DNA from: Terriglobia bacterium
GTDB lineage: Bacteria > Acidobacteriota > Terriglobia > JAJPHL01 > JAPKYU01
Direction of reading: 5' to 3'
DNA: 64,000 nt
NCBI GenBank assembly: GCA_965206645.1
Contig: CBDBKE010000004.1
Span: 1,541,552-1,605,551 of the forward strand
The notes below the pieces were generated by a model. It ran no database searches and was not told the DNA's origin. It worked only from the letters and a program-made list of their open reading frames with translations. A program made the translations under genes and the position numbers. This document shows positions 319 through 25,496 of the stretch, in pieces. Numbering within the stretch: position 1 is the stretch's first letter; every line of letters starts with the position of its first letter.

Positions 319-436
319 CAATGCTGTGTCCAAGAAAAGGTGGAGGATGTCCGTTAATTCGTAGAAAGTAGCGACTCTCAACCCCGGCCATACTGTGCCG
401 GGGGTCATTTTCTGCCAAGAAAAGGAGAGAGTCGCT

Positions 437-1246
437 ATGAAGAGAAGATACCAGATCGAAGGCCATCGTGCGGTGCAGAGTTTTCGCCGCTGGGCGGCCG
501 AGAAAAACCCGAACATTCAGATGCTCCTGCCGCTGGCCGAGGTGGTGAGCCTGCTGCAAGAAGGAGTGGGACACCTTTTGCGGGAGGCCGGGCTGGCGTT
601 GATGAACCTGGTGATGGAGGAGGAAGTGCGGCAGCTAGCCGGAGAGCGGCAGCAGCAACACTCGGGCCGCCGCGCCCACCGCTGGGGGAAGGAAGCGGGT
701 TACTGCGTGGTGGACGGGCAGAAGGTGCCGATCCGCAGAACCCGTCTGCGGAACCAGCAGAACCGCGAGCAGCGGCTAGGAAGTTATGAACTGTTTCAGC
801 GGAGCGCGCCGCTGGAGCGGAGGGTGTGGGACACGATGATGCGGGGGCTCTCGACGCGGAACTACGGCGCGGTGGTGAAAGAGTTTCAGCAAGCCTACGG
901 GATCGAGAAGTCGGCGGTGAGCGAGAACTTCGTCGCGGCCAGCCGGGAGAAGTTGCGGGAGTTGCTGGAGCGGCCCCTGGGCGAGTTGCGGCTATGCGCC
1001 GTGCTGATCGACGGCACGCCGTTCCGGGACCGCCAGATGATGGTGGCGCTGGGGATCGGCTGGGACGGGCGCAAAACGGTGTTGGGGCTGCGCGAGGGAG
1101 CAACCGAGAACGCCACGGTGGTTAGCGAGCTGCTCAGTGATCTGGCCGGACGCGGCCTGGACTTCGGCGTGCCCCGCCTGTATGTGCTGGATGGCAGTAA
1201 GGCGCTGGCTGCGGCGGGGTGCGGAGGGTGTCCTGAACTCAGTTGA
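437..1246 (+). pseudogene. IS256-family (mutator-type) transposase, N-terminal ~270 aa only. It is interrupted by insertion of a second IS256-family element
   Basis: ORF 395..1246 aligns with the minus-strand IS256 transposase (LIDGTPF...VLDGSKALAAA vs YIDGIVF...VIDGSKALRAA). A GGAGAG RBS precedes the ATG at 437. Coding ends abruptly at the inserted element. Confidence 0.7.
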
Positions 1247-2659
1247 AAGTTCGTAGCGGCGGTTCGGAGCCATCATACTACGCCACCTCCCGTCGAGTGG
1301 CCGACTTTGATCCTTCGAGGATCGCTTTCAACATCCACAGGTCCTGGTACCCCATCAGGCGGCGGAAGTTTTTCTCCGTGGCCAGGAAGCTGGAGGCGAC
1401 CCAGCGCTGGACCATGGCCGCATCCCGCCAGCGGCACACCCGGCGAGTTCGCAACCTCACTCCCGCCTGCGGACTCTCGATGAGATTGGTGGTGGCCAGA
1501 CAGCGATGTAGCGAAGCCGGAAGCCCCAGCCGGTTGATGGTGAAACATTCCTCCAGACCCTCCCGTAAGCTGGCCGCCGCGGCCGGACAATCTCGCTCCA
1601 ACCATTGGGCCAACTTCTCCAGCTTGGCCCTGCCGGTCTTCGGATCCAACCGCCAGGCGGCCCGCATCGCCGCCCGCACCTGGTCCCGCTCTGGCTCCGG
1701 CAACCGGTCCAGGACGTTGCGCAACTTGTGGGCGCGGCAGCGCTGCACCGGCTGCTCGGCCCCGAACACGGCGCGGATCGCCGCCCGCAAGGCCTTCGAG
1801 CCGTCGATCACAAACAGCCGTTTCTGGGCCGGCTGCACCCCTCGCCGCACTAAACCTTCCAGCAAGTCCTGGACGGCCGCGGCGTTCTCCGTAGCCCCCT
1901 GCTGAATCCCCAGCACGTGCTTGTGCCCTTCCGCATCCACGCCCACAGCCGCAATCACGTGATGGTCGCCAAACACTATCCCGTCGATGTAGAGGATCAG
2001 CAACTCTACTTCCTCGAAGCGGCGGTTCAACAGACGTTCTAACTCGGCTGCGGCAGCCTCCATCGTTTCCCGGCTGACCGTGGAGCGCGACACACCCACG
2101 GTGTCCGCCATCTCCGGCAACACCCGCTGGTACTGCCGGGTCGAGACGCCCCGCAGCAAGATATCCAACATCCGGGCCCCCAGACCCTCGCCCTCCTGCA
2201 TGGCTTCGTAGGCCGGGAGGGGAACTTCTTTCCCCGCTCCCCGGCCTGGCCGCCGGAGCCGTGGCCTGTGCACGGCCAGCTTTCTCTCCTCGAAGCGGCG
2301 GTCAGGCGCACCCGTCCCCGCTGGCGCCCATACCAGCCCACCCCACGGCGCCGCCGGCCCTGACGGCGTGGACCGGCCACCTGCGCGGCCGACAACTCCA
2401 GCACCGCTTCAATCGCCGCCCTACCCACCACGTCGATCAGCTCGTCGACGGCTAACCGCGATTGTTCGATCAACTCCACCCAGGGCAGCAGAAACTGCCC
2501 GTGGCGAGCCAGGTAGGCAGCCAGTTTGCGGGAGCTTCGGCTATCGCTCCGGCCTAGGATGTGGTAGCTTCTCTGCACGGCGGTTCCCCTTTCCAGAAAG
2601 TTTCCCAACCCGATTCTACGGAACCAGGTCAGCGAACCGCCGCTCAACTTTCAACTAAA
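1238..2659 (-). mobile_element. IS256-family insertion sequence (~1.4 kb) nested inside another IS256 transposase gene
   Basis: Terminal inverted repeats: AGTTGAAAGTTCGTAGCGGCGGTTCG at ~1241 and its reverse complement (CGAACCGCCGCTCAACTTTCAACT) at ~2633-2656. A transposase gene sits between them. Confidence 0.65.
1278..2647 (-). CDS. IS256-family transposase, split into two overlapping ORFs (2647..2039 and 2273..1278) by a frameshift near 2270
   Basis: The N-terminal ORF (MSGGSLTWFRR...DELIDVVGRAAIEAVLE) and the C-terminal ORF (...YIDGIVFGDHHVIAAVGVDAEGHKHVLG...CRAHKLRNVLD) together make a typical IS256 Tnp. Confidence 0.8.
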
Positions 2660-2919: not shown

Positions 2920-2974
2920 GAGCACAGGCCTTATCGGCCCATGCTCTCCAGGGGGCAGGCAGGAATGCTTACCC
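2920..2974. repeat. REP-like imperfect palindrome (GAGCACAGGCC-N4-GGCCcaTGCTC) followed by a GGCAGGAATGC half-element
   Basis: Palindromic sequence read directly. Same family as 3135-3188 and 5133-5160. Confidence 0.5.
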
Positions 2975-3077
2975 TACCTTTTGAAAAGGAAAAAAAGGGA
3001 GCCTCGTCTGGATGAGGCTCCCCTGTAGTTTTCGGTCTTGGCGTTCAGGCGCACACACGCCGTCAGGAAGGAAGCGA

Positions 3078-3099
3078 GTACAGGCCTTGCGGCCTGTAC
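3078..3099. repeat. Perfect 22-bp palindrome GTACAGGCCTTGCGGCCTGTAC (REP-like hairpin)
   Basis: Read directly. It shares the CAGGCC-N4-GGCCTG core with neighbouring elements. Confidence 0.55.
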
Positions 3100-3134
3100 T
3101 CTACGCCTAAGCGCAACCGAAGGAGATGGAAACT

Positions 3135-3188
3135 GAGCACAGGCCTTAGCGGCCTGTGCTCTCTACAACCCAGGCAGGAATGCCTGCC
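3135..3188. repeat. REP-like perfect palindrome GAGCACAGGCCTTAGCGGCCTGTGCTC, plus a second hairpin GGCAGGAATGCCTGCC
   Basis: Read directly. The 11-bp arms are perfect. Related copies lie at 2920 and 5133. Confidence 0.6.
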
Positions 3189-3195
3189 GCTATGC

Positions 3196-4635
3196 TTAGT
3201 CCTTCTCTTCACGATCCACGATGGCCAGATAGCCCTGCGCCGCCGTGGGGCCGTCGGTCCCGCCGTAGCCGTTGGAGATGAAGGCGAAGCCCTGGCCGTT
3301 TTCAAAGTCACAGTTCACGTCGAGAAAACCCTGGAAGCCCACAGCGATCGCCGACAACACGTAAGTCTCGCTGCCCCAGGACTTGACCTCCATCGTCTCC
3401 ATATCGGCGGGATTGGCCTCCGCACCATAGAACTTGATCTCGCAAGTTCCGGGATAGTCGGAAGCGTTCGTGAAGGCGATCCCGGTGTCAAAGCCTCCCG
3501 CGTTGGTCACGAACGGAAAGAGCAGGCTCGTCTCGCAGGGATCGAATCCGATGACCCGCACGGCAGCGGCATCAGCGAACTGCGGATTTCATTAGTGTCA
3601 GCACTGACGAAACCCACGCTCACCATGCCGTCGGCGATCATGGTGTCTTCTTCCCACGTGAAGCTCACCATCAACGTATTTCCCTGAGTCATATCATTCG
3701 CATCGGTAACGGTGTAAGTGATATCACCATCTCCATCGTTATCCAATGCAACCTCGACCATGGTTCCATCGGCGTCCGCTTCGCCTTCACCGGTCAGCGT
3801 GACTTTCATGCCATCGTCTGCGTTCGTCGGTCATGTTGTCGGCTGTATGGGTGATCATGACTTCCACGCCGTCCGGGATGCCGGAGAAATTGACTTCCAC
3901 CATGCCGTGTCATCAGCATCATCGTTGGTCAACGCCCCTACAAAGCCTTCCATGATCGAGATGCTGGCCATTCCGGTGGTTCCGACCCGGCATTGCAAAA
4001 CGTTGGCATCGTCCACCTTGACGACCAGTCCGGTTTTGACATCCGAGACATCGAACGCCCCCGGCGACACGGACTTGGTGTTCACAGTGAGTTGGGCGCT
4101 TATCTCTCCGTCGTCTCCCACCATGTAGGCGTTGGCTCGGATGCCGGCGATGACCACATTGAAACCGTTGCCGCCAGTTCCCAAGCCGAGATCTGCGCCG
4201 CTGAGTTCCTCCCACACGATCGTGTTCGGGTCCTCATCTTCATCAATCATCGGGCCGTCACCGTCGTCGGCAGCCATCAAACACGTCATCGGCTATAGTT
4301 TGGCCGCCCACAGTCCCAGTAGCGGTCAGCTCAGCAGCGCCAACATAGTTCAAGTCAGCCAGGCTGGTGATTGGAGTGTTCAGCGTAACGCTTAAGGTGA
4401 AATCGGTTACTGCAAACAGCGAGCCGGTGTCCTCTGAAGGCACGCACCGCAGCTCGATGCCGCCGATCTCTTCGGTCGTGCCCTCGGCGCGCACATTGGC
4501 CACTGCATTGTCACCCGTAGCAGCCCGCGCCTCGCACCGTTGCGCCTGGGCCACGCTGCTGCTCAACACGATGGCCGCGAGCAGGGACATCATGACGATG
4601 CCGCTTTTGAAAACTGCTTTCCGAATCTTTGCCAT
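3196..4635 (-). pseudogene. Secreted hypothetical protein gene broken by at least 3 frameshifts. Signal peptide MAKIRKAVFKSGIVMMSLLAAIVLSSSVAQA; Asp/Gly/Thr-rich extracellular protein
   Basis: Four consecutive minus ORFs (4686..4258, 4289..3855, 3809..3507, 3561..3196) overlap in different frames and read as one protein. A GGAGAG RBS precedes the ATG at 4635. Confidence 0.55.
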
Positions 4636-4730
4636 TGCCGTTCTCTCCTTCGATTTTTGAATCGTACTGGTTGAAATTTCTTGCAAAACTTTCTCTTCCT
4701 GCCGCTCGATCTAAAACTGCATTGGATTAC

Positions 4731-4780
4731 AGGCGGGGCAGGCAGGAACGCTTGCCGCTGCCTGAACGCCTGTCCTACCT
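4731..4780. repeat. GGCAGGAACGCTTGCC-type REP-like element
   Basis: Related to GGCAGGAATGCCTGCC at 3173-3188. Confidence 0.35.
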
Positions 4781-5132
4781 GAACGTTCTTGAATGCAACA
4801 CCAGCTCGCCGACTTTCTGCTTAATCTGCTTCCTTCATCTACGCTGCACGAACTCCAGGGTCAATTCGCTCTATATGCGGACCTACCAGAGACACGGGGA
4901 ATATGACACTTTCAGTTTCAGCCTGTCAATCTTTTTTCTTTGCCAGCTATGCTGCCCCCCGTAATCGCTGTGGTTCAAACAGCCGGGCAGATAATTTGGG
5001 GCTCAAAACAGTTGTTCATGGTAATCGGCTCAATCGGGGAATGCAAGAGTTTTTTGGGGAATTTTTCAAGATTTTTTCAGGGGGAGGGGGTGCACGAAAA
5101 AGCAAGAGAGAAGTGCAGGGGGGGATGGAATG

Positions 5133-5160
5133 GAGCACAGGCCTGGAGGCCCGTCGCCAT
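5133..5160. repeat. Partial REP-like element GAGCACAGGCCTGGAGGCCCGTCGC
   Basis: Shares the GAGCACAGGCC arm with elements at 2920 and 3135. Confidence 0.4.
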
Positions 5161-5171
5161 CTGGGCGCGTC

Positions 5172-5441
5172 TCATCGCGGGCTCTGGCAAAACCTGAGGG
5201 AGCGGGACCGAAAGGTTAATTTCATGGCCGTCGCCCGGGAGTAGCAGGCCCTATTGCGGGCCACCAACCGCTTGCGCAGCACCTTCTCGGCTTCGCCTTT
5301 CTCCTTTCGGCCTGTCGACTCCTGTCTGAACTTTCCGTTGTGGTCACGGTAACTCATCCACCAGACGCGTGAACCGCGCCGGGAGTACAGGCTACCGGCG
5401 GCCTTGCTGGGTCTACCTGTCTTGTTCATCGATTCCTCCAT
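5172..5441 (-). pseudogene. Tyrosine (phage-type) integrase, N-terminal arm-binding domain only. The catalytic domain is missing
   Basis: GSLYSRRGSRVWWMSYRDHNGKFRQESTGRKEKGEAEKVLRKRLVA is a typical integrase N-terminus. The ORF ends after 89 aa. Confidence 0.5.
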
Positions 5442-5629
5442 TCACATGAAAGCTGTCGCCACTCGGCCAACTCCGACAGTCGGAAGCGGATCGAGCGGCC
5501 CATCATGCGGTAATGGGGAATCTGCTTTCGCTCGACGTAAGCATACACCAGCGAGAGGCTGCCGCCCAAGAATCGGGCTGCGTCCTTCACCGTGATGGGG
5601 GCATCTGTCGCTTTTCCGTCCAGGCTCAT
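5426..5629 (-). CDS. Excisionase/AlpA-family helix-turn-helix DNA-binding protein
   Basis: ITVKDAARFLGGSLSLVYAYVERKQIPHYRMMGRSIRFRLSELAEW matches the excisionase HTH pattern. A GGGAGGG RBS lies 5 nt before the ATG (MSLDGK). It sits directly upstream of the integrase stub. Confidence 0.65.
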   Translation of the reverse strand: MSLDGKATDAPITVKDAARFLGGSLSLVYAYVERKQIPHYRMMGRSIRFRLSELAEWRQLSCEWRNR

Positions 5630-5789
5630 CGTTCCCTCCCTACTTTCCATACCAAACCACAAGGGAGAACTCCGCGCGGAGAGTCCGTTGCGATTGTGTC
5701 GTTAGTCCTACTCACACTCGGCATCACGTTTGATCTGCTCGATGATCTGATTGGCAAAGCGGCGATGGTATTCCTCTGCCGTCATCGCC

Positions 5790-6749
5790 CTACCCCTCAT
5801 CGTGTTGCCTCCCGATCGGCTCAATGAGCCAGCGGTTCTGTGGCGCGTCGTAACCTTTGACGAGCAAGGCCTCCTCCACAAATCGCCGCCCTTCGCGCCG
5901 CGTCATGTGAATCACCATCGCAATGCCGTCCACGACGCCCCGGCAGGTGACTTCCCAGGGAAGCTCTCCGCCGCCTTGCATGGCGCAACTGGCGAGCCGT
6001 GACAAGGCGCTTTCGGCGTTGTTGGCGTGCACGGTGGTGAGCGAGCCGCCGTGTCCGGTGTTGAGGGCTTGCAGCAGATCGGCGGCCTCCCCGCCGCGCA
6101 CCTCGCCCACTACGATGTGATCCGGGCGGTGACGCAAGGCATGGCGCACCAGGTCCCGGATCGTCACGGCTCCGGTTGCCAGTCCGCGAGCCTCGAAGCG
6201 GACGCAATTGGAGTGCTCGATGCGAAGCTCCAGGGTGTCCTCGATGGCGACGATGCGCTCGTCGTCGGGCAGCAATTCGATGAGCGCATTGAGAAGGGTG
6301 GTCTTGCCCGAGCCGGTGCCGCCTGAAACCAGGATGTTCCGGCGGGTGTACAACATCCGCTCGGCCGCTTCTTTGACGTTCAACGGCAGCGCCCCTTGTT
6401 CAACCAGGTCCGCCGCTGAAAACGACCGTTTACCAAAGCGCCGAACGGTGATCGCCACCTTCGGGCTGGCGGGCGGAACGCAGATTGCTACACGCGAGCC
6501 GTCGTCTAGGCGAGCATCGACGATGGGCGCCGTGGCCGGGTCCAGGCCGAGAGGCCGCGCAATATGGATAGCGGCCCTTTGAAGCGCCGCAGCGGTCAGC
6601 AGCGGGGCCTCGTGGGAATAGAGCTTCCCATGCCCCTCGATCCAGACGTTGTGCGGGCCGTTTATCATGATCTCGCTCACTTCCGGGTCCTCCAGAACAT
6701 CCTCCAGGCCGGGCAAAAACGGTTTCAACAACTCCAGGCCGTCGCTCAT
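5790..6749 (-). CDS. trbB: Conjugative type IV secretion ATPase TrbB/VirB11 family
   Basis: Walker A SGGTGSGKTT and the VirB11/CpaF signature (GEVRGGEAADLLQALNTGH). Next to a T4CP gene. Confidence 0.85.
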   Translation of the reverse strand: MSDGLELLKPFLPGLEDVLEDPEVSEIMINGPHNVWIEGHGKLYSHEAPLLTAAALQRAAIHIARPLGLDPATAPIVDARLDDGSRVAICVPPASPKVAITVRRFGKRSFSAADLVEQGALPLNVKEAAERMLYTRRNILVSGGTGSGKTTLLNALIELLPDDERIVAIEDTLELRIEHSNCVRFEARGLATGAVTIRDLVRHALRHRPDHIVVGEVRGGEAADLLQALNTGHGGSLTTVHANNAESALSRLASCAMQGGGELPWEVTCRGVVDGIAMVIHMTRREGRRFVEEALLVKGYDAPQNRWLIEPIGRQHDEG

Positions 6750-8776
6750 ATCTTTCCTTCTGCTTTCGCACGCCAGTAGGGAAGCGACCGGGGCAGATAG
6801 TGGGGTTTGAGGTACACGCGGGTTGCCGGCAGTGACTGTGCGCCGTCGTAGGGCAGGCAGATTGCTTGGCAGTTGGAGAGCAGGGCAAACTCGCGGGGCT
6901 GAAACACTGCCTCGCGTTGTTCGCGGAAGGATTTGCTGGCTCCTACGCTGCCGGCGCCGCCACCGGCCTGGGCCGAGAGCATGGATACCTCACTTTGCTT
7001 GGCAGATTCGGTGATGGTATAGGAGGGTTTGATCTTGGCTACCTGCCCGCACAGAGCCGAGGCGGTTTGAGCGCTGGCGTCATCGCTCAAGGAAAGGAAT
7101 ATCCGGGTGCGGAGCGTTTGCAGCAGGGTGCGCCACGCCTCGCCGCTGCCGAGAACGGAGCGCAGCGAGCTGATTGATTGCGTGGCGACGATCAGAATGC
7201 AGCGGCACTGCCGGGTGAGGGCAAAGGATTTCTCGTCGCCGGAAGGATCGTCCTCGCCGACCGAAGCAAACGACTGGTACTCGTCGCAGATGAACACGGC
7301 GGGCCGGAAGTATTGATCCGGCGCTTCCTTCATCTGCGCCGGTCGCCGCAGGAGCGATTGCAACCAGGCGTTCTTGAGCATTACTCCTACAGCTCGTGCC
7401 AGCGCCGGGTTGCTGCCGGCCGGCATATTCAGGGCCAGCACCTTGCCCGACTCGATCAGCTTGTCGAGGGGCGGCAAGCTCTGCCGTACTCTCGTTCCCA
7501 GTCCCGGCTGTTCGTCTTGCTTTGGCTCTCCATTTCCGTTCGCCGCCGCCTTCTCCGGTGGCGGTGGTGGACAGAACACCCGCGCCACGCTTGGCAGGTC
7601 GAATATGGACAGAAAAACTGAGATGCCCTCGACGATGCTCGACCGGATTTTGTTGTCGATCATTCCCCAGTCGTGTTGATACCAGCGATTGACGGCCTCG
7701 ACCCGCTTGCGAATCTCTTCTGTCTTTACGCTCTCGGTCCACTCGATCTTATATTCGATCTGGAGTTCTTTGAGCTGGGCTACAACCGCTGGGCTGTGGT
7801 CCGTGTAGAATGTGTTCTCTTGCTCGATCGGAATCCATTTTCTCTTCCCGGAGCGCAGCGAGGGGATGTTTGCTCCATAGTCCGTGGCGGATATAAACAC
7901 GGCGCCCTCGCGAAGATCGCTGGCGTATGCTTCGGCCTCTTGGATTTTGGCCGCAAACAGTTCCTTGTCGATGGCGCAGTGATAGACTTGCTGCAATGTG
8001 ACCCATTGGCCGGGGAACACCCGGTAGAGTTCGATGATCCAGCGGACCAGGTTGGTGTAAGCCTGTTGCCAAAACGGCTCCTTCCCTTTGCCGAACAACT
8101 GGTTGAGCAGGGAGGAAACGGTGTAGGCCAGCGAGTAAGAATCAAGCCACTCTGCCGAGAGTGGATTCCATTGCCAGCGGCCCTCCATCCCCAGCTCGAT
8201 GTAATCTTCCTCCCGGCCCGCGTCGGCAAGGATTCGCCGGATTTCATAGCAGAAATCGCCCTTGACTTCCAGCACCAGGCCAGCCGCCCGGCGCTGGGGA
8301 TCGCGGGCCTGCCATGACAAGATTTGCTCTGCGAATGGGCGCATGCAAGCCGAGGTCTTGCCGGACCCCACGGCGCCGAAAATTGCCACTCCGGTGTACA
8401 GGCCGCGCTCCGGGATAGTGAGCCAGGAAGGGTTGCGAGATTCGACGGCTTTGACCGGGTGGTGAACCTCCCCAACAACGATCGCCGGCCCGGCGTCTTT
8501 TGCGGGATTCAGGGGCCACGTTGGCAGCATTCCAATGTTCGGCATAGCGATGCCCCAAGAATTAAACCAGACCCGCCAGACCGTGATGAGAAACAGTCCG
8601 CCGACGATGACGGCGGCGGCTGGCGCGAGGTAGTACCACCAGACGATCCAGGTGTAGAAGTTGGGGGTGTGATAGAGCACCAGGTCGAGCATTGGATCGT
8701 CGCCGGGCATGGGGAAAGGCCGGTAGAGGAAACCCCAAGCGGAGCAGCCAAGCCCAGCAACTATCAGGATCGGATG
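6746..8776 (-). CDS. traG: Type IV coupling protein (TraG/VirD4 family)
   Basis: N-terminal TM segments and Walker A GAVGSGKTS; ~670 aa. GGAGG RBS before the ATG at 8776 (MKIRHPIL). The upstream in-frame extension to 9196 runs through a repeat-rich non-coding region and is not believed. Confidence 0.8.
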   Translation of the reverse strand, partial: HPILIVAGLGCSAWGFLYRPFPMPGDDPMLDLVLYHTPNFYTWIVWWYYLAPAAAVIVGGLFLITVWRVWFNSWGIAMPNIGMLPTWPLNPAKDAGPAIVVGEVHHPVKAVESRNPSWLTIPERGLYTGVAIFGAVGSGKTSACMRPFAEQILSWQARDPQRRAAGLVLEVKGDFCYEIRRILADAGREEDYIELGMEGRWQWNPLSAEWLDSYSLAYTVSSLLNQLFGKGKEPFWQQAYTNLVRWIIELYRVFPGQWVTLQQVYHCAIDKELFAAKIQEAEAYASDLREGAVFISATDYGANIPSLRSGKRKWIPIEQENTFYTDHSPAVVAQLKELQIEYKIEWTESVKTEEIRKRVEAVNRWYQHDWGMIDNKIRSSIVEGISVFLSIFDLPSVARVFCPPPPPEKAAANGNGEPKQDEQPGLGTRVRQSLPPLDKLIESGKVLALNMPAGSNPALARAVGVMLKNAWLQSLLRRPAQMKEAPDQYFRPAVFICDEYQSFASVGEDDPSGDEKSFALTRQCRCILIVATQSISSLRSVLGSGEAWRTLLQTLRTRIFLSLSDDASAQTASALCGQVAKIKPSYTITESAKQSEVSMLSAQAGGGAGSVGASKSFREQREAVFQPREFALLSNCQAICLPYDGAQSLPATRVYLKPHYLPRSLPYWRAKAEGKI

Positions 8777-8860
8777 GCGTATTTTCATGGGGCTTGCCTC
8801 CGGCGCCTCAGCGCCCGCTTGGGGTTCAGGTTCGGAGCCTTCCCGCAGGGACAAATCAGA

Positions 8861-9160
8861 CGAGAGCGACCCCCAAAAAAGGGGGGGCAGGGTATGCCAC
8901 AAACCCTGCCACAAACCCCTTTTCCTGTTTGCCGATAGAGCGGCAAAAAAGGGGGGGTCGCTCTCGTCTTTCCCCGCCCCTCTCCTTCTGGCGCGGGATG
9001 GCCTGGTAGTAGCAGGAAAACCACTGCGAGGCAAAGAAATAGACAAAATGAGTGTTGCCACAAAAAATGCCGATTCTTGCCACGCCCCCCCCCTTATATA
9101 AGTGGCAAAAAAGATCGGCACGGCCACCGTTTGTGGCAGGCCAAAAAAACGCTCTATCTC
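8861..9160. promoter_or_regulatory. Repeat-rich intergenic region, candidate oriT or operator. It has a 13-bp inverted repeat GAGAGCGACCCCC/GGGGGTCGCTCTC flanking G/C tracts, and TGCCACAAA direct repeats with inverted TTTGTGGCA copies
   Basis: Read directly. Located between the replication-relaxation gene and the coupling-protein gene. Confidence 0.35.
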
Positions 9161-9195
9161 GGAAACGTCCACTGGAGTTCCATTGCTGCGGTTCA

Positions 9196-10164
9196 TTAGA
9201 CTGTCTCCACCACCTTCACGCGGTCAGAAACCCACGTCTCGAAGCCGTCGATCGTGGCTCCGATTGAGCCGCTTGTCTTGGGCAGGTCTTTCAGTTCCAT
9301 CAACCTGTCCGAGATTTCCTCGACACTGCCGTACTTCCTTATGATCCTCATGTCCACATTGATAATTGCGGCCTCGATCAGCTTGATTTCCGCCTGCACG
9401 TTCGGGTCGTTCCGGCTCGGTCCATCTGCCCGCTGACTGCTCTGCTCACCCCCTCGGCTGCTCCACGTCTTTAGCGCCGCTTCGGCCCGGATTGTGGCTT
9501 TGTAGTCCGCTCCGATTACGACGGCGCGGACCTCGATGCCTTGCAACCGCAAAGCCTTCCAAAGCCACTCATGCGAGTCGCCCCACGATCGCAACTCGGT
9601 ATCGGTATCTTTGCCCGGATCGACGTAGACGAACGATGAGGATTTAGCATCGCAAGCGATAGGCAGTTTCAGGGCAAAGTATCGGGTTTGTGTCCCCACG
9701 GCTCCCTGATAGACCCGCTTGGGCAAGCGCCTGCGGTCGATGCCCAGTAAATCGAAGAAAGCGACCTTTTCCTGCTCGGTGGGCAGCCAAGGAAGCTCCG
9801 GGTTCTCCAGAACATAGTCGAGCGAGAGCAACCGCCGTAGCATGACGGAATCATCCCCCTCTCGGCGGTGCCGGACGTTCTCAATTCCCAGCTTGCGGTA
9901 AATCTCTTTGTTGGATATTCGGACCGCCTTCGGTCCACCGCGTCTGTTAGGAAGAGCGTCCTCTATGGCAAGCCTGCGCTCCACCATGTCGCGCACAAAT
10001 CGCAATGCTCGCTTTCGATCCGACACGGCATCGAAGAAGTGGCAGAATTGCGCCCTCGTGAACACGCCGCTATGCAGACAGACCAGGGCGATCCACTCCG
10101 CTTCGCGGCCCTTCCAGCCGAACGACTTCAGGGCTTTTTCTCGATCATGGAGATGTTTAATCAT
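9196..10164 (-). CDS. Replication-relaxation family protein (PF13814-like), a possible non-canonical relaxase or mobilisation protein
   Basis: The N-terminus LHDREKALKSFGWKGREAEWIALVCLHSGVFTRAQFCHFF fits the L-x-RD...L...R....T..Q...FF winged-helix pattern of this family. Context: between T4CP and trbF. Confidence 0.45.
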   Translation of the reverse strand: MIKHLHDREKALKSFGWKGREAEWIALVCLHSGVFTRAQFCHFFDAVSDRKRALRFVRDMVERRLAIEDALPNRRGGPKAVRISNKEIYRKLGIENVRHRREGDDSVMLRRLLSLDYVLENPELPWLPTEQEKVAFFDLLGIDRRRLPKRVYQGAVGTQTRYFALKLPIACDAKSSSFVYVDPGKDTDTELRSWGDSHEWLWKALRLQGIEVRAVVIGADYKATIRAEAALKTWSSRGGEQSSQRADGPSRNDPNVQAEIKLIEAAIINVDMRIIRKYGSVEEISDRLMELKDLPKTSGSIGATIDGFETWVSDRVKVVETV

Positions 10165-10166
10165 TG

Positions 10167-10829
10167 CTACTCGCCGGTCACTAAAGCCCGGTCGCCTCGC
10201 AGGTAGGTGACAATGATTCCCATAGGGTTGAAAACCATCAATTCGGTTGGAATTTCATCCAGGAACATGAACTGCATGGAGACTGTCCAGCGTTCGCGCT
10301 GGCTCTCGACCGCATTCACCAGGCGCACCAGGTCGAAGTCGGCGGTGGCGCCGTGGGGTTCCTGTTGGTTGGCCTGAATCCGCAAGACCACGCGCTCGAC
10401 CTGGAGCTCTTCTCTGGTGACTCCTGCCGCCAGCATGGCGATATTCTGGCCTTCGGCGCGGAAAGCCTCGTTGGCTAGTCCGGTGGTCAAAAAGCGTAGG
10501 CTGCGGGACCACGCTTGTTCGACCGTAGCCCGCCGCCGGGAGTAGTAGTCGTCGATGAAGCGATTCAGAAAATACTTGGTGGTGGGGTCCAGCGGATCGG
10601 CCTGGGCCTCGACCGTCTCATAGGCCAGCGCCTCGGCCCGGCCTACCTCGTCCACGCGGACGACGATCGGTCGCGGCGCTTCAACCGACGACAGCCGGAT
10701 GATGTTGACTACCAGCAGCAAACAGAGTCCTGCCAAACCCATCGACAGGACGCGCAAGTGCCGGTTGGAGTGGATCGCCTCGCCCCAAATCTCGGCGTAG
10801 GTCTTTGCGGTTTCGTTCTCTTTGCTCAT
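10167..10829 (-). CDS. trbF: Conjugal transfer protein TrbF (VirB8-like)
   Basis: N-terminal TM then an NTF2-like domain. The start at 10829 overlaps the trbL stop (TAATG) with a GGAGGG RBS. The longer ORF to 11021 is an artefact. Confidence 0.7.
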   Translation of the reverse strand: MSKENETAKTYAEIWGEAIHSNRHLRVLSMGLAGLCLLLVVNIIRLSSVEAPRPIVVRVDEVGRAEALAYETVEAQADPLDPTTKYFLNRFIDDYYSRRRATVEQAWSRSLRFLTTGLANEAFRAEGQNIAMLAAGVTREELQVERVVLRIQANQQEPHGATADFDLVRLVNAVESQRERWTVSMQFMFLDEIPTELMVFNPMGIIVTYLRGDRALVTGE

Positions 10830-11827
10830 TACAACCCTCCTTTTGCCGCCTTCGCTGCGCCACCGGCAGCGGCTCCGGTGCCGCCCGCCGCCGCCATTGC
10901 CGCTCCCGTGATCCCGGAGCTGGTGACGGCGCTGCCGGTGACCAGCATGGAAGCCAGCTCGCCGACCTTGAGGGATGCCAGAATGCCGGCCACGAACAGC
11001 GGCAGGATAATCAGCACCCATCCTCCCATTACGGTTATGTCGAAGCTGATGACCTGGTTGGAGAAGGTAGTCACATAGCCCAGCGCCACGCCCATGAACA
11101 CCCGCATGACGGCTCCGGCCAGTGCGCCGTAGAGGCTGAAAACGATCAAGGATCGGAACCAGCCCCAGAACAGAAACGACATAGGCTCAAACAACAACCA
11201 GGGAATGAACAGCGGTCCTAAAAAGACAAGAATGGCAATCGCGAGCTGCGCCCAAAGCACCTGAGCGTAGGTGATGCAATACAGCAGCACCAGCATAGTC
11301 ATTGCAAAAATCATCATGATGGTGGCGGAGAACAACGTCATGATGGCGGCTCCGCCGGCTGTTATCAGGTCCCAAATCTGGTAGCCGTCCCACGCATCGG
11401 TGATGCGGGTCAAGTGGGTGTTGATCATGTTGGATAACTCGGTCCGCATGGCGGTTCCGACGTCGGCTATAAACATATCCATCAACCAGTTTCCGCCCTC
11501 CACAATCATGCTCGGAAAGGTGTAGGCGTTTGCTGGCACAGGCAGCGGGGTATCGTAGAAGTGCAGCATCACCCACGGAATCCAGAGGCCGATAATGAGC
11601 TTGATTAACTCCCACGGTTGGAAAGAGCCGGACAGGGCGATTTTCACCCCTGTCCAGACAATCATGATGGAGGCAAGCCCGGTCCAGAGCTGTTCTCCGG
11701 TAGACAGCAAAAGGGGGCCGCTGCCCCCTATGATGTTGTTCATTACTTGGGTCAGGAGACTTTCAAAGTTGTCGAGGTCTCCTGCCGGGATGTTGGTCGG
11801 AACAACTGGATCAATCTGTAATTGCAT
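10829..11827 (-). CDS. trbL: Conjugal transfer protein TrbL (VirB6-like)
   Basis: Polytopic membrane protein with a Gly/Ala-rich C-terminal tail (AAMAAAGGTGAAAGGAAKAAKGG), typical of TrbL. Confidence 0.8.
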   Translation of the reverse strand: MQLQIDPVVPTNIPAGDLDNFESLLTQVMNNIIGGSGPLLLSTGEQLWTGLASIMIVWTGVKIALSGSFQPWELIKLIIGLWIPWVMLHFYDTPLPVPANAYTFPSMIVEGGNWLMDMFIADVGTAMRTELSNMINTHLTRITDAWDGYQIWDLITAGGAAIMTLFSATIMMIFAMTMLVLLYCITYAQVLWAQLAIAILVFLGPLFIPWLLFEPMSFLFWGWFRSLIVFSLYGALAGAVMRVFMGVALGYVTTFSNQVISFDITVMGGWVLIILPLFVAGILASLKVGELASMLVTGSAVTSSGITGAAMAAAGGTGAAAGGAAKAAKGGL

Positions 11828-11871
11828 TGCTGTCTACCTCATTCTGCGGACCGGACTGCCGTCGAACGGAT

Positions 11872-12240
11872 TTACGGGGCGTACATGGGATGCAGTTGCA
11901 CTTTGAGACTGTCTCCGCCGTCGCTGCGTGAAGAAATCCCGGCAATCCGTTCGTTGAATACAATCTGCCCTTGCTGCCGATCGGCGAGCTGCGCTGCTAC
12001 GCGCTCCCGCCGGCGGCGTTCGGCTTCTAGTTCTTCCGCCGCTTGCTGCGCGGCCTGGAAGGCTTGCAACTGCGCCATTGCAGCGGTCAACTGTCCCTGA
12101 GTGACCATGCCGGCAACCTGGGCCTGGCCTAACGCGGTGCCGGATACGTTGCTGTTAGACCGCAGTCCGTTGTAGGAATCGAGAGCGGATTTGATCGCCG
12201 CCGACGCCTCTGCGGCGGCATCGGAGACGGCGTAATTTTG
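11872..12240 (-). pseudogene. trbJ: TrbJ-like conjugal transfer protein, C-terminal fragment. The N-terminus with its signal peptide is missing
   Basis: Gln/Ala-rich coiled-coil (QLTAAMAQLQAFQAAQQAAEELEAERRR). The in-frame upstream stretch NYAVSDAAAEASAAIKSALDSYNGL... ends abruptly at ~12240. Confidence 0.45.
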
Positions 12241-12593: not shown

Positions 12594-14870
12594 TTACTCG
12601 CTCTCCTGTCTGAGCGCCTTGCGCAATTCCTTCAATTTGTCGTGGAACTCCTTGGTGGCCATCTTGGCCTCGCCCATGTCCTTGATCACCCTGGGCGTGA
12701 GCAGGATGATCAGCTCGTTGCGGCTGGTGGAATCGCGGGTGGTGCCGAACAATAGCCCCAAGCCGGGAATGCGCCCTAACAGCGGCACTCGATTGGTGGA
12801 GACGATCCGGGTTTCCGAGATGATGCCGCCCAGGGCAATGGTCTCCCCGTCCTGCACCGTCACCTGAGTGGACACGGAACGCTTCTGGATCGAAGTCAGA
12901 GTACCGCTGCTGGTCGGCACGCTGACTTCCTGGTCGATACGCAACGTCACCAACCCGCTGGGATTGATGCGCGGTGTCACCGACAGGATCACGCCGGTAT
13001 CCCGCCGCTGGAAGGAACTGACAGGTGAGATGGTCCCGAAGGCTACGCCCTGCTGAGTCTGGAGGGGAATCTCCTGTCCTACCTGGATGCGCGCCTCGGT
13101 GTTATTGCTGGCCAAAAGCGTGGGCGCGGAAAGCACCCGTGTGCGTCCCCGGTTCTCCTGGGCATTCAGGAACAGGAACAACTCGCGGCTGCGGCCTATT
13201 AAGGTGCCCACCGAAGCGCTCAGGCCGGCGTTAGGAAACGTCTCCGTCCCGAAAGCGCTGAATTGCCCAACGGGATTCCGGGAGGCGCTGCTGCGCCGCT
13301 GGAGGAACGCTTCGACCCCGAAGGACAGCGCCCCCGATAAGGCGACCTCGTACACCTTGGCTTCAATGAGCACCTGCCGGGGCGCCACGTCCAGCCCCTT
13401 CATGGTCTCAAGGATGACTTCGTAGTCCTGCGGGGTAGCCTGGACGACCAGGGTATTGTTGATGGGGTCCGGAACAATGCGCGCCGGACTCTGCAACATT
13501 CCGCCCGGCACAGCAGCTATGAAGATTTGCCTGGAACCCCGGTACATAGAACCCCGCGATGTTTGGCCCACCCCGCCGACAGGAAACGACACACCTCCGG
13601 GCGTCATTCCTCCACCAGCCGCTCCCATCCCGCCGGGCGGTATCATCCCCGGCGCTGTCATCCCGGGCGCTGTCATCCCGGGCGCCGACGCTCCTGTTGC
13701 CTCCGCACCCATCATCGGCCGAGCTGCTCCGTAAAGGCCCGCCAATACGAAAGCCAACTCCCCCGCCGCCCTGTTTTCCACCTTGTAGGCAAAGTTCTGC
13801 AGTCCCCCACGGCGCACGGGCTTGTCCAGCTTCTCAATCCACTGCTGCACTTCCGAGTACACCTCGGAATTCGGAGTCGCCACCAGGATGGAGTTGATTC
13901 GCTCCAGTGCAATAAACCGCACCGCCGAGCCTTCCTTCGAGAGGGCATACGCCTTGAAGATTTCCTCCAGGTCCTTGACCAGGCTGCTGGCCTGGCTGTT
14001 CTCGATGGCAAACAACCGGACCCGCTGCTGCTCCAGCGCCGAGGTGTCAAACAGGTTCACCATCCCCATTAGCCGCTTCAGGCTGCGGCTGGTGTCGGTG
14101 ATGAGCAGGATGTTGCCCGGCTCGTGGGTCACGATGTGGCCCGCTTCCGACAGGTAGCTGCTCAGGATTTTCGACATATCCGCGGCGGTGACGAAGCTGA
14201 GGGCGACCACGTTCATCACCATGCGGTCATCAGGCGGCAGGCTGGCTCCAGTGGGATCCTGGGTGAGCGGTAGCGGAACACGCGGCGCTCCCTTCAGGGG
14301 CACGATCCGCCAGAAGCTGCCGCTCTGGACGGCCGAGGCCCCGTTGGCCCGCAGGATGGCCTGCAGCAGGGGCAGCAGGTCCTCATGACTCAGGTTGCCC
14401 AGGGTGTTGATGTTCACCACACCCTTCACCCCAGGGTCCACGACATAGTTCATCTTGAGTTCGGCGGCAATGATTCCAATCACCTGAAGCAGGTTGGCAT
14501 TCTCCAGGTGGAGGCTGATGCGCGCCCCAGCTCGCGTCTTCCCCGTTGCCGGTGCCGCTTCCGCCTCCTGCGCGGGAGGCTCTGCCGATGGCTGGTCTTG
14601 AGGCTGGGCAGTCGGTTGTTGCGGTTCCTGAGCCTGAGGCTCTGTCGGTTCCCCCTGCGCTGGCGGCTGGACCGGTTGCTCGGTTTGAGACTGCGCAGGT
14701 GGTTGCGCGGGTTCCTGGACCGGCGCGGCCTTCCTCGGAGTGCTGCCTGCGGCGACCGTCGACATCAGCCCCCAAACTGCTAAAACTAGGACGGCGCTAC
14801 CCAGTTGGCCTCTCAGTACACCGGATGTGAAATTCCGCATCCTCTTCGTGGTTCGTTTTATTCGGCTCAT
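12594..14870 (-). CDS. gspD: Type II secretion system secretin GspD
   Basis: N0/N1 domains and a secretin C-domain (VLSAPTLLASNNTEARIQVGQEIP...ELIILLTPRVI). Signal peptide present. Last gene of the gsp operon. Confidence 0.9.
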   Translation of the reverse strand: MSRIKRTTKRMRNFTSGVLRGQLGSAVLVLAVWGLMSTVAAGSTPRKAAPVQEPAQPPAQSQTEQPVQPPAQGEPTEPQAQEPQQPTAQPQDQPSAEPPAQEAEAAPATGKTRAGARISLHLENANLLQVIGIIAAELKMNYVVDPGVKGVVNINTLGNLSHEDLLPLLQAILRANGASAVQSGSFWRIVPLKGAPRVPLPLTQDPTGASLPPDDRMVMNVVALSFVTAADMSKILSSYLSEAGHIVTHEPGNILLITDTSRSLKRLMGMVNLFDTSALEQQRVRLFAIENSQASSLVKDLEEIFKAYALSKEGSAVRFIALERINSILVATPNSEVYSEVQQWIEKLDKPVRRGGLQNFAYKVENRAAGELAFVLAGLYGAARPMMGAEATGASAPGMTAPGMTAPGMIPPGGMGAAGGGMTPGGVSFPVGGVGQTSRGSMYRGSRQIFIAAVPGGMLQSPARIVPDPINNTLVVQATPQDYEVILETMKGLDVAPRQVLIEAKVYEVALSGALSFGVEAFLQRRSSASRNPVGQFSAFGTETFPNAGLSASVGTLIGRSRELFLFLNAQENRGRTRVLSAPTLLASNNTEARIQVGQEIPLQTQQGVAFGTISPVSSFQRRDTGVILSVTPRINPSGLVTLRIDQEVSVPTSSGTLTSIQKRSVSTQVTVQDGETIALGGIISETRIVSTNRVPLLGRIPGLGLLFGTTRDSTSRNELIILLTPRVIKDMGEAKMATKEFHDKLKELRKALRQESE

Positions 14871-14883
14871 CTCAGATTCTGCC

Positions 14884-15681
14884 TCATTTGGTTTTCTGTG
14901 CCGCCGGGAGATCCTCATACCAGGTCTGTACACCAAATGGCGTTACCCGGTCGTATCTCTTCCGGTTACCTTCGACGGTGACGGTTAAATAGCGATCCCC
15001 GGTGGAGGAGCCGGTCGCTGGGGCGACAGCGGGAGCGGTGGCGGCTCCTGGGGTGGGTGTAGACGCCGGCCCTGCAGAAGAAGCTGAAGGGGCAGCCGGA
15101 ACAGCGGTCAACACCTGGTCGGCCGCGGTGCCGGCCGGGCGGGCGGGCCGGACTGCGGCCCGCCCGGCGGCCTGGCGCACGTTTTCGGCTGACTCGTAGA
15201 CATCAATGGTAGTCTTTTGGCCCTCGAATTCGATGACCACCTGGTGCTCGGCGATTTCCGCTACGCGATAGCCACCGATTTCATCGCCCACCTTGAGCCG
15301 GCGGAATGTGGCCTGCCTGGCCTGTTGCGGCTCGGCCATCAGGGCCACCGGACCGCTGCCGAGGTTCAAGGTTCCAATCACCAAGGGGACCGGCGGCCGG
15401 ACCTTGGATACGCTTGCCAACGCCTGGTCGTTATTGCGGTCGGGGCTGAACAGGTTGCGGGTGAGCAGCACGGAGTAGCTGTCCGGGACAGCCGCCAGTC
15501 CAGCTTCAGCCATGCCTGCTTTGGACACACCTGGCCCGGGGGTGGCTGCTGAGGTCACAAACTGCTTGTAGCGGGCATGATTGCTCTGCCAGGCATTGTG
15601 GATGGCGGCGGCAACCCACATCGCCAGCGTCAAGAGGGCTAGGTTGAGATAGGTTATCGGTTTGCGCATGCTTTCTCTCAC
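14884..15681 (-). CDS. gspC: GspC/PilP-like secretin-interacting protein
   Basis: N-terminal TM (LNLALLTLAMWVAAAI), a Pro/Ala linker, and a beta-rich HR-like segment VGDEIGGYRVAEIAEHQVVIEFEGQKTTIDV. Sits immediately upstream of the secretin. Confidence 0.55.
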   Translation of the reverse strand: MRESMRKPITYLNLALLTLAMWVAAAIHNAWQSNHARYKQFVTSAATPGPGVSKAGMAEAGLAAVPDSYSVLLTRNLFSPDRNNDQALASVSKVRPPVPLVIGTLNLGSGPVALMAEPQQARQATFRRLKVGDEIGGYRVAEIAEHQVVIEFEGQKTTIDVYESAENVRQAAGRAAVRPARPAGTAADQVLTAVPAAPSASSAGPASTPTPGAATAPAVAPATGSSTGDRYLTVTVEGNRKRYDRVTPFGVQTWYEDLPAAQKTK

Positions 15682-16340
15682 GCTTTGGGAGTTGGCGCGG
15701 GCTCGGCGAACATCAACCCGCGAATCACCATTCGCACCGCCACCATCTTTTGCGGCTTTTGTGGTTTTTGTGGCCGGCCGGGCCGCGAGGGCAGCGCCCT
15801 AATGGAGAGCTGATCCAGCGCCAGCACCTTGCGACTGGCGTGGGCAGCCAGCAGAAAACTCGTGAGCTGGTCCAGCCTGCATTGGAACGACAGCGACAAG
15901 GGCACGACGTTATAGCTCGCCCCGGCGACCTTGAGAACCCGCACCGGCCGGAAGGCGGCGTTGCGCATTTCCATGCCCTGCTTCGCCATCAGTTGCTTGA
16001 TCACTTCCTGCAACTCGGCCGCAGCCAGGGCCGACGTGCTGCTGCTCAGCAGGCCTTTCTCGGCTTCAGCCAGACGAGCCTGCATTTCCTGAAACTCCTT
16101 TTTCTGATCTGCGGCCAGGGCTACAAGTCGCCGGTATTTGCGCAGGGTCTTCTCCTTCAGTGGCAGCGAGGCACGGAGCTTCTCGGCGGGGTCCATGACG
16201 GGCAAGACAAGCAAATCCAGCAGCAGGAACAGAGCAGTGGCAGCTGCCAGCAAGAGCAGAGCCCGCTGGTCTCGAGCGCTCAAAGAACGCAAGAAAGACG
16301 CAGCTGTCGCTGGCTCCCTCTTCCTGCCTCCGTTAGTCAT
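15678..16340 (-). CDS. gspM: GspM/PilO-like inner-membrane assembly protein
   Basis: Single TM followed by a coiled coil (KKEFQEMQARLAEAEK) and a periplasmic domain. Position after gspL. Confidence 0.55.
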   Translation of the reverse strand: MTNGGRKREPATAASFLRSLSARDQRALLLLAAATALFLLLDLLVLPVMDPAEKLRASLPLKEKTLRKYRRLVALAADQKKEFQEMQARLAEAEKGLLSSSTSALAAAELQEVIKQLMAKQGMEMRNAAFRPVRVLKVAGASYNVVPLSLSFQCRLDQLTSFLLAAHASRKVLALDQLSIRALPSRPGRPQKPQKPQKMVAVRMVIRGLMFAEPAPTPKA

Positions 16341-17883: not shown

Positions 17884-17926
17884 TTCCGATACGCTCGCTT
17901 CTTCAAGTCCTCGTTCATAGCCCAGT

Positions 17927-18919: not shown

Positions 18920-18921
18920 TT

Positions 18922-21076: not shown

Positions 21077-21094
21077 GGGGTTGCTCCTCTGCGC

Positions 21095-21170
21095 CTCTGT
21101 GTGTCTATGTCGTATACCTCTGTGTCGCATGCCGCTGTGTCGTATGCCTCCGCGTCTTATGTCCCTGCGG
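21095..21170. repeat. Four imperfect direct repeats of ~TGTGTCGYATGCC in the gspF-gspG intergenic region
   Basis: Read directly: tgtgtctatgtcgtatacc / tgtgtcgcatgcc / ctgtgtcgtatgcc / cgtcttatgtccc. Confidence 0.4.
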
Positions 21171-21175
21171 CTCTC

Positions 21176-22390: not shown

Positions 22391-22399
22391 CTTTCAAAT

Positions 22400-22476
22400 T
22401 GACTCATTGACGACTGGTTCATTGACGATTGTCAAAATCAGCCTTCCACAATCGTCAATGACTCAATCGTCAATCT
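22400..22476. promoter_or_regulatory. Nested inverted repeats built from four ATTGACGA/TCGTCAAT units. The inner 12-bp perfect IR is CATTGACGATTG...CAATCGTCAATG
   Basis: Read directly in the gspE-gspF intergenic spacer. Confidence 0.45.
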
Positions 22477-22488
22477 AACAATCTTCCC

Positions 22489-25417: not shown

Positions 25418-25496
25418 GACTCACCTCCTGCCCGCCGTAAGGGCAGGCAGCGCAGCCTCTCCGGCTGGACAGCAACAACGCCTGTCCAGGGGGTGG

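Follow-up and report, generated by a model that had tools for sequence, protein, structure and literature searches.

The 64,000-nt stretch of DNA analysed here (the window; positions 1,541,552 to 1,605,551 of contig CBDBKE010000004.1, assembly GCA_965206645.1, Terriglobia bacterium, Acidobacteriota) carries a truncated copy of a trb/virB-type integrative and conjugative element (ICE), of a kind found in Acidobacteriota and Gemmatimonadota. On its minus strand, the gene of a 322-residue protein (orf322, 9196-10164) is followed by a non-coding spacer and then by the gene of a VirD4/TraG-like type IV coupling protein (6746-8788). The spacer combines a long inverted repeat and a short box, both kept throughout the family, with short motifs that differ from element to element, and we consider it probable that it is an origin of transfer (oriT). 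In the direction of transcription, its features and flanking genes are as follows.

9196-10164, minus strand: orf322, 322 aa; N-terminal winged helix-turn-helix and C-terminal alpha/beta domain; candidate binder of the spacer repeats
8789-9195, minus strand: non-coding spacer of 407 nt between the orf322 and coupling-protein genes; candidate oriT region
9130-9138, minus strand: putative specificity motif, copy 1 (TGCCACAAA on the minus strand), the copy nearest to orf322
9074-9111: degenerate inverted motif pair TTCTTGCCAC / GTGGCAAAAA around a C9/G9 run, within a larger imperfect inverted repeat with flanks GCCGAT and ATCGGC
9056-9064, plus strand: putative specificity motif copy TGCCACAAA, ~23 nt past the inverted pair along the direction of transcription
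8953-8969: long inverted repeat, 5' arm on the transcribed (minus) strand, reading AGACGAGAGCGACCCCC; its core AGCG.CCC is invariant in the family
8927-8946: inner hairpin 1 of the loop (TTTGCCG ATAGAG CGGCAAA); the GCCGC-N4-GCGGC type is kept in Acidobacteriota relatives
8895-8916, plus strand: two tandem copies of the putative specificity motif (TGCCACAAAC twice) within the loop of the long inverted repeat
8858-8874: long inverted repeat, 3' arm on the transcribed strand, reading GGGGGTCGCTCTCGTCT; its core G.CGCT is invariant in the family
8838-8852, minus strand: conserved box GTCCCTGCGGGAAGG, 17-18 nt after the GTCGCT core, with a mini-hairpin TCCY-NNN-RGGA; candidate nick site
6746-8788, minus strand: type IV coupling protein, VirD4/TraG-like, 680 aa (Pfam TrwB_AAD_bind, TraG-D_C)

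An earlier, sequence-only reading had proposed a repeat-dense oriT or operator at 8840-9196. Direct reading and a repeat scan recovered every sequence feature that it listed; the spacer itself runs from 8789 to 9195. The 13-nt inverted repeat of that reading (GAGAGCGACCCCC / GGGGGTCGCTCTC) is merely the inner part of a perfect 17-nt repeat (AGACGAGAGCGACCCCC and GGGGGTCGCTCTCGTCT), the arms of which (8858-8874 and 8953-8969) stand 78 nt apart; its homopolymer tracts correspond to CAAAAAAGGGGGGG, present twice (8874-8887 and 8944-8957), and its tandem direct repeats to TGCCACAAAC at 8895-8904 and 8907-8916, with a period of 12 nt. Two degenerate copies, TTGCCAC (9077-9083) and GTGGCAA (9102-9108), make up an inverted pair around the C9 run. 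Exact copies of TGCCACAAA number four in the whole 64-kb window, all within 244 nt (8895-9138) and none elsewhere, against 0.54 expected from dinucleotide shuffling; none of 100 shuffles reached four. The transcribed strand of the spacer, taken as single-stranded DNA, is predicted to fold into a three-way junction followed by the mini-hairpin of the box (−47.9 kcal/mol; z = −8.3 against shuffled sequences).

The homopolymer runs (8870-8888, 8944-8957 and 9084-9092; C7T6...G and G9) keep their position relative to a related locus, L001, but not their length; for example, the window and L001 copies, which are 93% identical, read C7T6G5 and C8T5G6, respectively, a difference for which genuine slippage and errors of long-read assembly are both possible causes. 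The transcribed strand of the spacer is depleted of stop codons, 55 of 74 related loci having a stop-free frame over 330 nt where 27.6 are expected; the opposite strand is not (30 stop-free loci against the same expectation); the open frames are divided between two frames and interrupted by indels. An 816-aa open reading frame starting at 9196, which would extend the coupling protein N-terminally, was ruled out, the homologues being ~680 aa long and indels breaking the frame between close relatives; it is an artefact of the poverty in stops, and the homologues' length places the start codon at ATG 8788 (8786-8788). A separate 137-aa spacer gene, as called in L081, was likewise rejected on account of frame-breaking indels and the split of the open frames. 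The spacer contains only weak consensus matches to intrinsic terminators or sigma-70 promoters, none of them conserved. An integrase attachment site was ruled out for the ICE, in which the site lies 3-4 kb within the element; in loci resembling integrative and mobilisable elements it lies near an element end.

Conserved site and variable motifs

The sequence-only reading had counted a lack of these repeats in homologous elements among the findings that would speak against it; the repeats are clearly conserved there. Eighty related loci (designated by L numbers) were sampled from metagenome-assembled genomes of Acidobacteriota (Terriglobia, Vicinamibacterales, Bryobacterales) and Gemmatimonadota (Longimicrobiales, Palauibacter), often with several loci in one genome. 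A spacer of ~290-430 nt separates the orf322 and coupling-protein genes in ~70 of them, and the architecture of repeat and box recurs in ~75, across both phyla and among coupling proteins that are just 57-95% identical. The core of the inverted repeat reads GGGAGCGACCCC / GGGGTCGCTCCC, encloses a loop of 62-90 nt and is extended by co-varying outer pairs (~75 loci); the box, ATCC(C/T)TNCRGGAAGG, follows GTCGCT by 17-18 nt and is present in 76 loci, taking the form (A/G)TCC(C/T)TCC(A/G)GG in Gemmatimonadota.

In an alignment of the arms and box of 68 distinct sequences (A4), in which a linker takes the place of the loop, AGCG.CCC, G.CGCT, TCC, C and GGAAG are invariant. Pairing of the stem is kept in 91.4% of cells, with 13 of 23 pairs changed on both sides (105 cells), a result matched by none of 500 shuffles; sliding the partners by 1-3 columns yields at most 54% pairing. 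Of the 340 cells in the five variable pairs that border the core on its outer side (columns 7-11), only 2 are G-T, and this near-absence suggests that complementarity is maintained at the level of DNA rather than as an RNA helix. Similarly, the pair that closes the mini-hairpin of the box is C-G in 50 sequences and T-A in 15, a compensatory change. Box and start codon lie anywhere between ~12 and ~280 nt apart, which argues that the box is not simply part of the ribosome-binding site. A reading of TTTATCCCTG as a DnaA box was ruled out, since its TTAT part is missing in Gemmatimonadota.

Plasmid collections contained no sequence similar to the region, the spacer or orf322, and a single weak match to the coupling protein (28%; Agarilytica pSU3) in an unrelated context. 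In some of the genomes, the coupling protein-virB11 segment is partly duplicated in inverted orientation, or a further, convergently oriented copy of the element lies within 8 kb (L008 4158-5213; L016 11854-14091; L050 and L051 ~13300-13430).

Superimposed on this constant frame are 4-8 copies of a 7-9-mer that is peculiar to the element and in general follows the pattern TGNNNACA / TGTNNNCA. The positions are kept: an inverted pair with its members ~22 nt apart around a G-run, a third copy ~23 nt further on, and one to three tandem copies in the loop at 12-nt spacing. L002, L004 and L008 show the inverted-pair arrangement with the locus-specific motif in both arms, and the positions are conserved in many loci. 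Between elements, the copies change in concert at all positions, as expected of specificity sites. The motifs are distributed as follows.

TTTGTGGCA: window, L001 and L085
GTGTGACA: L002, L003 and L088
TTTGTTTCC: L004
GTGTACCA: L008, L020 and L025
GTGTCCCA: L009 and L010
GTGGAACA: L032, L035 and L044
TGCGCA-type motifs: L043-L047

Elements residing in the same genome mostly have unlike motifs (L001/L004, L002/L025, L003/L008; five classes in each of CBDHFM and CBDCKA), and a few same-genome pairs have identical ones. When near-identical elements with unlike motifs are compared, divergence peaks at orf322 codons ~30-63, at the motif-bearing parts of the spacer and at coupling-protein codons ~300-333. 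When segment identity was regressed on motif class in sliding windows, with overall coupling-protein identity as a control (33 loci, 516 pairs), the first of these regions stood out: the strongest association belongs to orf322 residues 46-57, the predicted recognition helix, with t ~12 (median over windows −0.3, 90th percentile 2.2), values that rank segments and are not probabilities, the pairs not being independent. The best window of the coupling protein, residues 301-309, reaches t ~5, and its hypervariable residues ~295-309 are weakly associated with motif class. Moreover, helix and motif match across divergent backgrounds, DRK(R/Q)(A/I)LRF occurring with GTGGCA, (Q/A)R(I/M)(T/I)ASR with GTGGAACA and HH(S/D/E)RA.R with TGCGCA; among the loci fetched later, L085 and L088 fit this rule, and L086 and L087 do not. 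On sequence grounds, binding of the spacer motifs by orf322 is supported but not proven.

A metagenome scan with the core of the repeat gave 39 loci, in several of which spacer, repeat and box (variants such as ATCCCGTGCGGGAAGG) occur without a coupling protein. Examples of such contexts are these.

L123, 4405-7134: integrase and, in divergent orientation, an intact orf322 homologue, followed by spacer, repeat and box and further on by ordinary metabolic genes; no coupling protein or type IV secretion system (T4SS)
L126, 6252-7470: defence-type cargo, orf322 and site, then a transposase; an integrase is present, and there is no coupling protein or T4SS
L112, 6150-6660, and L120, 10063-10153: full spacer adjoining an integrase, without orf322, coupling protein or T4SS

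In L089, too, the site is not followed by a coupling-protein gene. These occurrences speak against a role confined to coupling-protein expression, and they are what would be expected of a cis-acting mobilisation site that is also carried by hitchers; the minimal modules are possibly mobilisable hitchers of this ICE family.

Candidate proteins and the function of the site

The sequence-only reading had described the gene beside the spacer as a replication-relaxation, relaxase-like gene. This assignment is not supported, as orf322 matches no profile of Pfam or NCBIfam and no PDB sequence; in particular, a scan of 30 family members with Replic_Relax (PF13814) gave no match even at E values as high as 10, and membership of that Pfam family was rejected. 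The sole recognisable part of orf322 is its MarR/ArsR-like N-terminal winged helix, and a search of the protein for a PD-(D/E)XK signature detected none; its conserved residues include Y89, D116, D182 and H198.

In complete elements, the genes are ordered as a small Zn-finger-like gene, a 63-aa gene, ardC, orfX, one or two small genes, trbC, virB3, virB4, virB9, virB10, trbJ-like, trbL, virB8, orf322, the spacer, the coupling-protein gene, virB11, xis and int. The site is thus placed within the T4SS operon and adjoins the coupling-protein gene, with faint relaxase candidates ~10 kb away. One of these is orfX, a gene for a protein of 296-315 aa that adjoins ardC ~10 kb upstream of the spacer in all four complete elements (L085 6955-7902; L086 8151-9041; L087 8117-9016; L088 8111-9046) and that combines a winged-helix-like segment with HD, YPDAQ.E and VNVE.A.EHY motifs. 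Its putative recognition helix is conserved across elements with four motif classes, as expected of a protein that reads the invariant repeat and box, and orfX is a candidate for the family's MOBC-like relaxase.

Taken together, an oriT or protein-binding interpretation fits the evidence best, and we think it likely that the spacer represents an oriT-type nick region combined with element-specific specificity sites of a trb/virB-type ICE. In the proposed scheme, a first layer, common to the family, would be the nick region proper: the long inverted repeat, which would form the three-way-junction hairpin when single-stranded, and the box at a fixed 17-18 nt from it. This layer would be read by a conserved protein that processes the DNA and probably nicks it in the box or close by; the best candidates are the conserved Replic_Relax-like orfX of complete elements and the conserved C-terminal domain of orf322. 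A second layer would consist of the 4-8 copies of the element-specific 7-9-mer, with the inverted pair and one copy upstream of the repeat and one to three in tandem in the loop; bound by the winged helix of orf322, these may serve as a private address that ties an element's DNA to its own coupling protein, encoded directly downstream. The role of orf322 would then be that of a relaxosome specificity factor, and possibly of the DNA-processing enzyme itself. We infer oriT function, binding by orf322, nicking, the strand nicked and the direction of transfer. Analogy points to a nick in the minus strand, with the repeat 5' of the nick site (nic), which would fall in or near the box GTCCCTG^CGGGAAGG (caret, putative nic); the recipient would first receive the coupling-protein gene, virB11, xis, int and ardC, and the T4SS genes would come last.

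We regard as doubtful the bolder proposal that orf322 founds a new, non-HUH family of conjugative DNA-processing proteins, acting as relaxase or as an obligatory relaxase loader, whose reprogrammable winged helix reads the private 7-9-mer while a conserved domain of orf322, or orfX, reads the universal repeat and box. If such a two-key oriT were real, sibling ICEs could share one genome without cross-mobilisation, and the arrangement would also be exploited by minimal hitchers made of integrase, orf322 and site, or of integrase and site.

Several observations weigh against an oriT. The sequence-only reading had held that the spacer lies exactly where an oriT is expected; it is indeed next to the coupling-protein gene, but no recognisable relaxase gene adjoins it, and by the logic of leading regions the gap upstream of ardC is an alternative location. 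The C-terminal domain of orf322 has no assignable fold. The similarity of orfX to Replic_Relax PF13814 is below the gathering threshold and was seen in two of four proteins (E 0.078 in one; E 0.0093, at profile positions 13-168 of 191, in the other), and only one of the four complete elements encodes a MobA_MobL relaxase (L085, 7920-8696, E 1.5e-16). The box departs from the MOBP nick consensus by an extra C and varies in Gemmatimonadota, with no MOBP relaxase seen. Exceptions to the match of helix and motif are L009 versus L010, L054 versus L087, and L086. A distant family, with coupling proteins ~40% and orf322-like proteins ~30% identical (L091, L093, L095, L098, L101, L103, L109, L110, L116 and L118), retains the repeat core, on a longer stem (GTGGGCGGGAGCGACCCC...GGGGTCGCTCCCGCCCAC), but has no GGAAGG box. 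Finally, all that precedes the C-terminal third of the trbJ-like gene (virB2-virB10, ardC and orfX) is missing from the window copy, as is most of the integrase, and the orfX and MobA_MobL genes are not in the window; without the T4SS part, orfX and a full integrase, the site could work here only in trans, if at all.

Among the other explanations, a replication origin is unlikely, although it shares several traits with the locus: orf322 would be an initiator (Rep), the short motifs would be iteron-like, and the repeat and box would form a theta origin or a nick site resembling a rolling-circle double-strand origin (dso) that maintains the excised element. As in iteron Rep systems, a winged-helix protein of ~320 aa is encoded beside repeats of its own, an inverted pair among them; there are minimal modules composed of integrase, orf322 and site (L123); and motif and helix co-vary like incompatibility determinants, with co-resident copies differing. 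Rolling-circle origins such as that of pMV158 also have a hairpin nick locus apart from the direct repeats that are bound. Against this, no match to a Rep, HUH or other initiator family was found, the motifs are 7-9 nt long at 12- and ~23-nt spacing rather than iterons of 17-22 bp, and neither a DnaA box nor an AT-rich unwinding element was seen in the spacer; moreover, the gene sits inside a T4SS operon beside a coupling protein whose hypervariable patch also associates with motif class, and the elements are chromosomally integrated and have an integrase.

A purely regulatory site, at which a MarR-like orf322 would bind the repeats and control its own expression or that of the coupling protein, virB11, xis and int, with the repeat and box being regulatory or insulating, is quite unlikely as the whole explanation. 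Because oriT regions are often operators as well, it is likely to be partly true, and the MarR/ArsR-like fold, the operator-like combination of an inverted pair with direct copies of a short motif, and the position directly upstream of the coupling-protein gene, with its conserved leader and Shine-Dalgarno sequence, all agree with it. It does not account for spacer, repeat and box where no coupling-protein gene lies downstream (L112, L120, L123, L126, L089), for a core and box that two phyla share without variation and at a constant spacing from each other, but at anything from ~12 to ~280 nt from the start codon, or for tandem sites in the loop of a 17-19-bp repeat; nor was a convincing sigma-70 promoter found in the spacer in the direction of the genes.

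A structured RNA is very improbable; it would be a part of the polycistronic mRNA, acting as a cis-regulatory leader, a processing site or a small RNA, through which translation of the coupling protein is controlled. The strand is transcribed with the operon and has a strong predicted structure, stops are depleted on this strand only, and a 12-nt complementarity between the 5' untranslated region (UTR) and codons 16-20 encloses the Shine-Dalgarno sequence and ATG; but G-U is nearly absent from the co-varying stem, the short motifs occur on both strands with a helical-repeat spacing that suits binding to duplex DNA, the site is found without a coupling-protein gene, and Rfam 15 gave nothing at its gathering score (a single chance match of 22.8 bits against a cut-off of 90). 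Chance repeats, or a repetitive extragenic palindromic (REP)-like or miniature inverted-repeat transposable element (MITE)-like insertion without a role in the element, are hardly credible, for although a perfect inverted repeat around ~80 nt looks superficially like a MITE, there is one copy per element at a constant syntenic position in ~75 loci, no further copy in the 64-kb window, a motif count far above chance and a co-varying stem.

The element copy in the window and its surroundings

The ICE remnant occupies 5172-12237, and similarity to related loci ends at 12237 and ~5243. In addition to orf322, the spacer and the coupling-protein gene, the window copy retains the following features.

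11872-12183: remnant of the trbJ-like gene, C-terminal ~100 codons
10829-11827, minus strand: TrbL/VirB6 (Pfam/NCBIfam)
10167-11021, minus strand: VirB8/TrbF (Pfam/NCBIfam)
8786-8826, minus strand: coupling-protein leader, with the conserved ACCCCAAGCGG, a GGCGC-N4-GCGCC hairpin, the Shine-Dalgarno sequence GGAGG (8797-8801) and ATG
5790-6749, minus strand: VirB11/TrbB (Pfam/NCBIfam)
5426-5662, minus strand: excisionase-like helix-turn-helix protein
5172-5441, minus strand: N-terminal fragment of the integrase, 89 aa, the gene being cut after ~89 codons

Within the leader, the 5' UTR sequence ACCCCAAGCGG (8815-8826, kept in close relatives) is perfectly complementary over 12 nt to coupling-protein codons ~16-20 (8731-8742), an arrangement around the Shine-Dalgarno sequence and start codon that might serve translation control. 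Beyond the truncated integrase, window positions 2959-5236 and L001 9147-11453 share non-integrase sequence at 82% identity, which implies that the truncation is older than the split between the two; this common stretch encodes small acidic proteins without family (3196-4686). Downstream of the ICE remnant lie fragments of Mutator-family transposases in opposite orientation (395-1246, plus strand; 1278-2273, minus strand).

On the other side, directly next to the truncated ICE but not found in related ICE loci, a cluster resembling a type II secretion system or type IV pilus (12594-26147, minus strand; secretin GspD, GspM, PilN/GspL-like, GspK, two pseudopilins, GspF and GspE) looks complete and is preceded by an extracytoplasmic function (ECF) sigma factor (25497-26147) and a zf-HC2 anti-sigma factor (24728-25417); it was ruled out as part of the element, the similarity of relatives stopping at 12237. 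A tRNA-Asn gene (GTT) at 58614-58688, in a lower-GC stretch at 55-59 kb (GC ~0.55), is unrelated to the ICE remnant and marks a possible integration hotspot.

Significance and relation to known systems

Acidobacteriota and Gemmatimonadota are abundant phyla of soil bacteria and sponge symbionts in which conjugation is essentially uncharacterised: an early survey recorded one basal mating-pair formation (MPF-T) system in Acidobacteria, with nothing known on conjugation there (PMC3548315), and nothing on conjugation origins in either phylum was found in the literature library searched. In most of the complete elements inspected no relaxase can be recognised, so that standard tools would class these elements as non-mobilisable. 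The succession of GGGAGCGACCCC, ~60-90 nt, GGGGTCGCTCCC and the box is a searchable oriT-like signature and a handle for finding both elements and hitchers, and the concerted swaps of short repeats and of one helix in the neighbouring protein offer natural specificity variants for the discrimination of self from sibling DNA. If experiments confirm it, this would be an oriT architecture in which the nick-region hairpin holds element-specific sites in its loop, and the relaxosome proteins involved may form a new family.

With iteron and rolling-circle origins, exemplified by the dso of pMV158, the spacer shares a hairpin-forming locus set apart from short direct repeats and an incompatibility-like diversification of sites; it differs in its short motifs, in the lack of a Rep or HUH match and in its position in a T4SS operon beside the coupling protein. 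Assignment to iteron-type origins was rejected on the 7-9-nt motifs, with no Rep family match and neither an AT-rich element nor a DnaA box seen.

F-like oriT regions join a conserved nick region to plasmid-specific TraM and TraY sites, and their accessory protein matches its own coupling protein (TraM-TraD). The likeness here is one of functional analogy, in that the motif, the orf322 helix and the coupling-protein patch vary together. TraM and TraY are, however, of the ribbon-helix-helix type, and orf322, at 322 aa, joins a winged helix to a large additional domain; the gene orders are unlike and the families unrelated.

In MOBP nick regions (IncP/Ti/R64), an inverted repeat is followed ~8 nt later by YATCCTG^Y (caret, nic), with the core ATCCTG^C. 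Conserved motifs near nic have been described in IncP, Ti/Ri, R64 and pTF-FC2 (PMC5587640). The present site resembles these in having an inverted repeat 5' of a short conserved sequence, at a fixed distance and on one strand, in the company of a trb-like T4SS, and the Acidobacteriota form of the box, (T)ATCCCTGC, resembles ATCCTG^C. Its box nevertheless reads ATCCCTG or GTCCCTG, with one C more, its Gemmatimonadota form differs, and its repeat has a structured loop of 62-90 nt in place of the few nucleotides found in MOBP. Membership of the MOBP-type nick regions was rejected on the extra C and on the absence of a Pfam Relaxase gene from the five elements, partial or complete, that were inspected.

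The closest described architecture is that of oriT2 and TraX of pAD1/pAM373 from Enterococcus faecalis. In work by Francia and Clewell from 2002, the oriT of pAD1 and pAM373 reportedly lies between the genes of the relaxase and of a TraG-like coupling protein, with a large inverted repeat common to both plasmids and short repeats that are plasmid-specific. TraX, the MOBC relaxase of pAD1, carries a winged helix at its N-terminus; the protein binds five direct repeats at 70-120 bp from nic (PMC12857230). Unlike TraX, orf322 has no detectable Replic_Relax or PD-(D/E)XK domain, and the faintly Replic_Relax-like orfX lies ~10 kb away; unlike pAD1, the present elements belong to diderm Acidobacteriota and Gemmatimonadota, have an MPF-T-like T4SS, share no sequence similarity with the plasmid and have further motif copies in an inverted pair and within the repeat's loop. 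What the two systems have in common is a protein with an N-terminal winged helix paired with a series of short repeats distant from the nick site, the binding of these repeats being, for orf322, a prediction.

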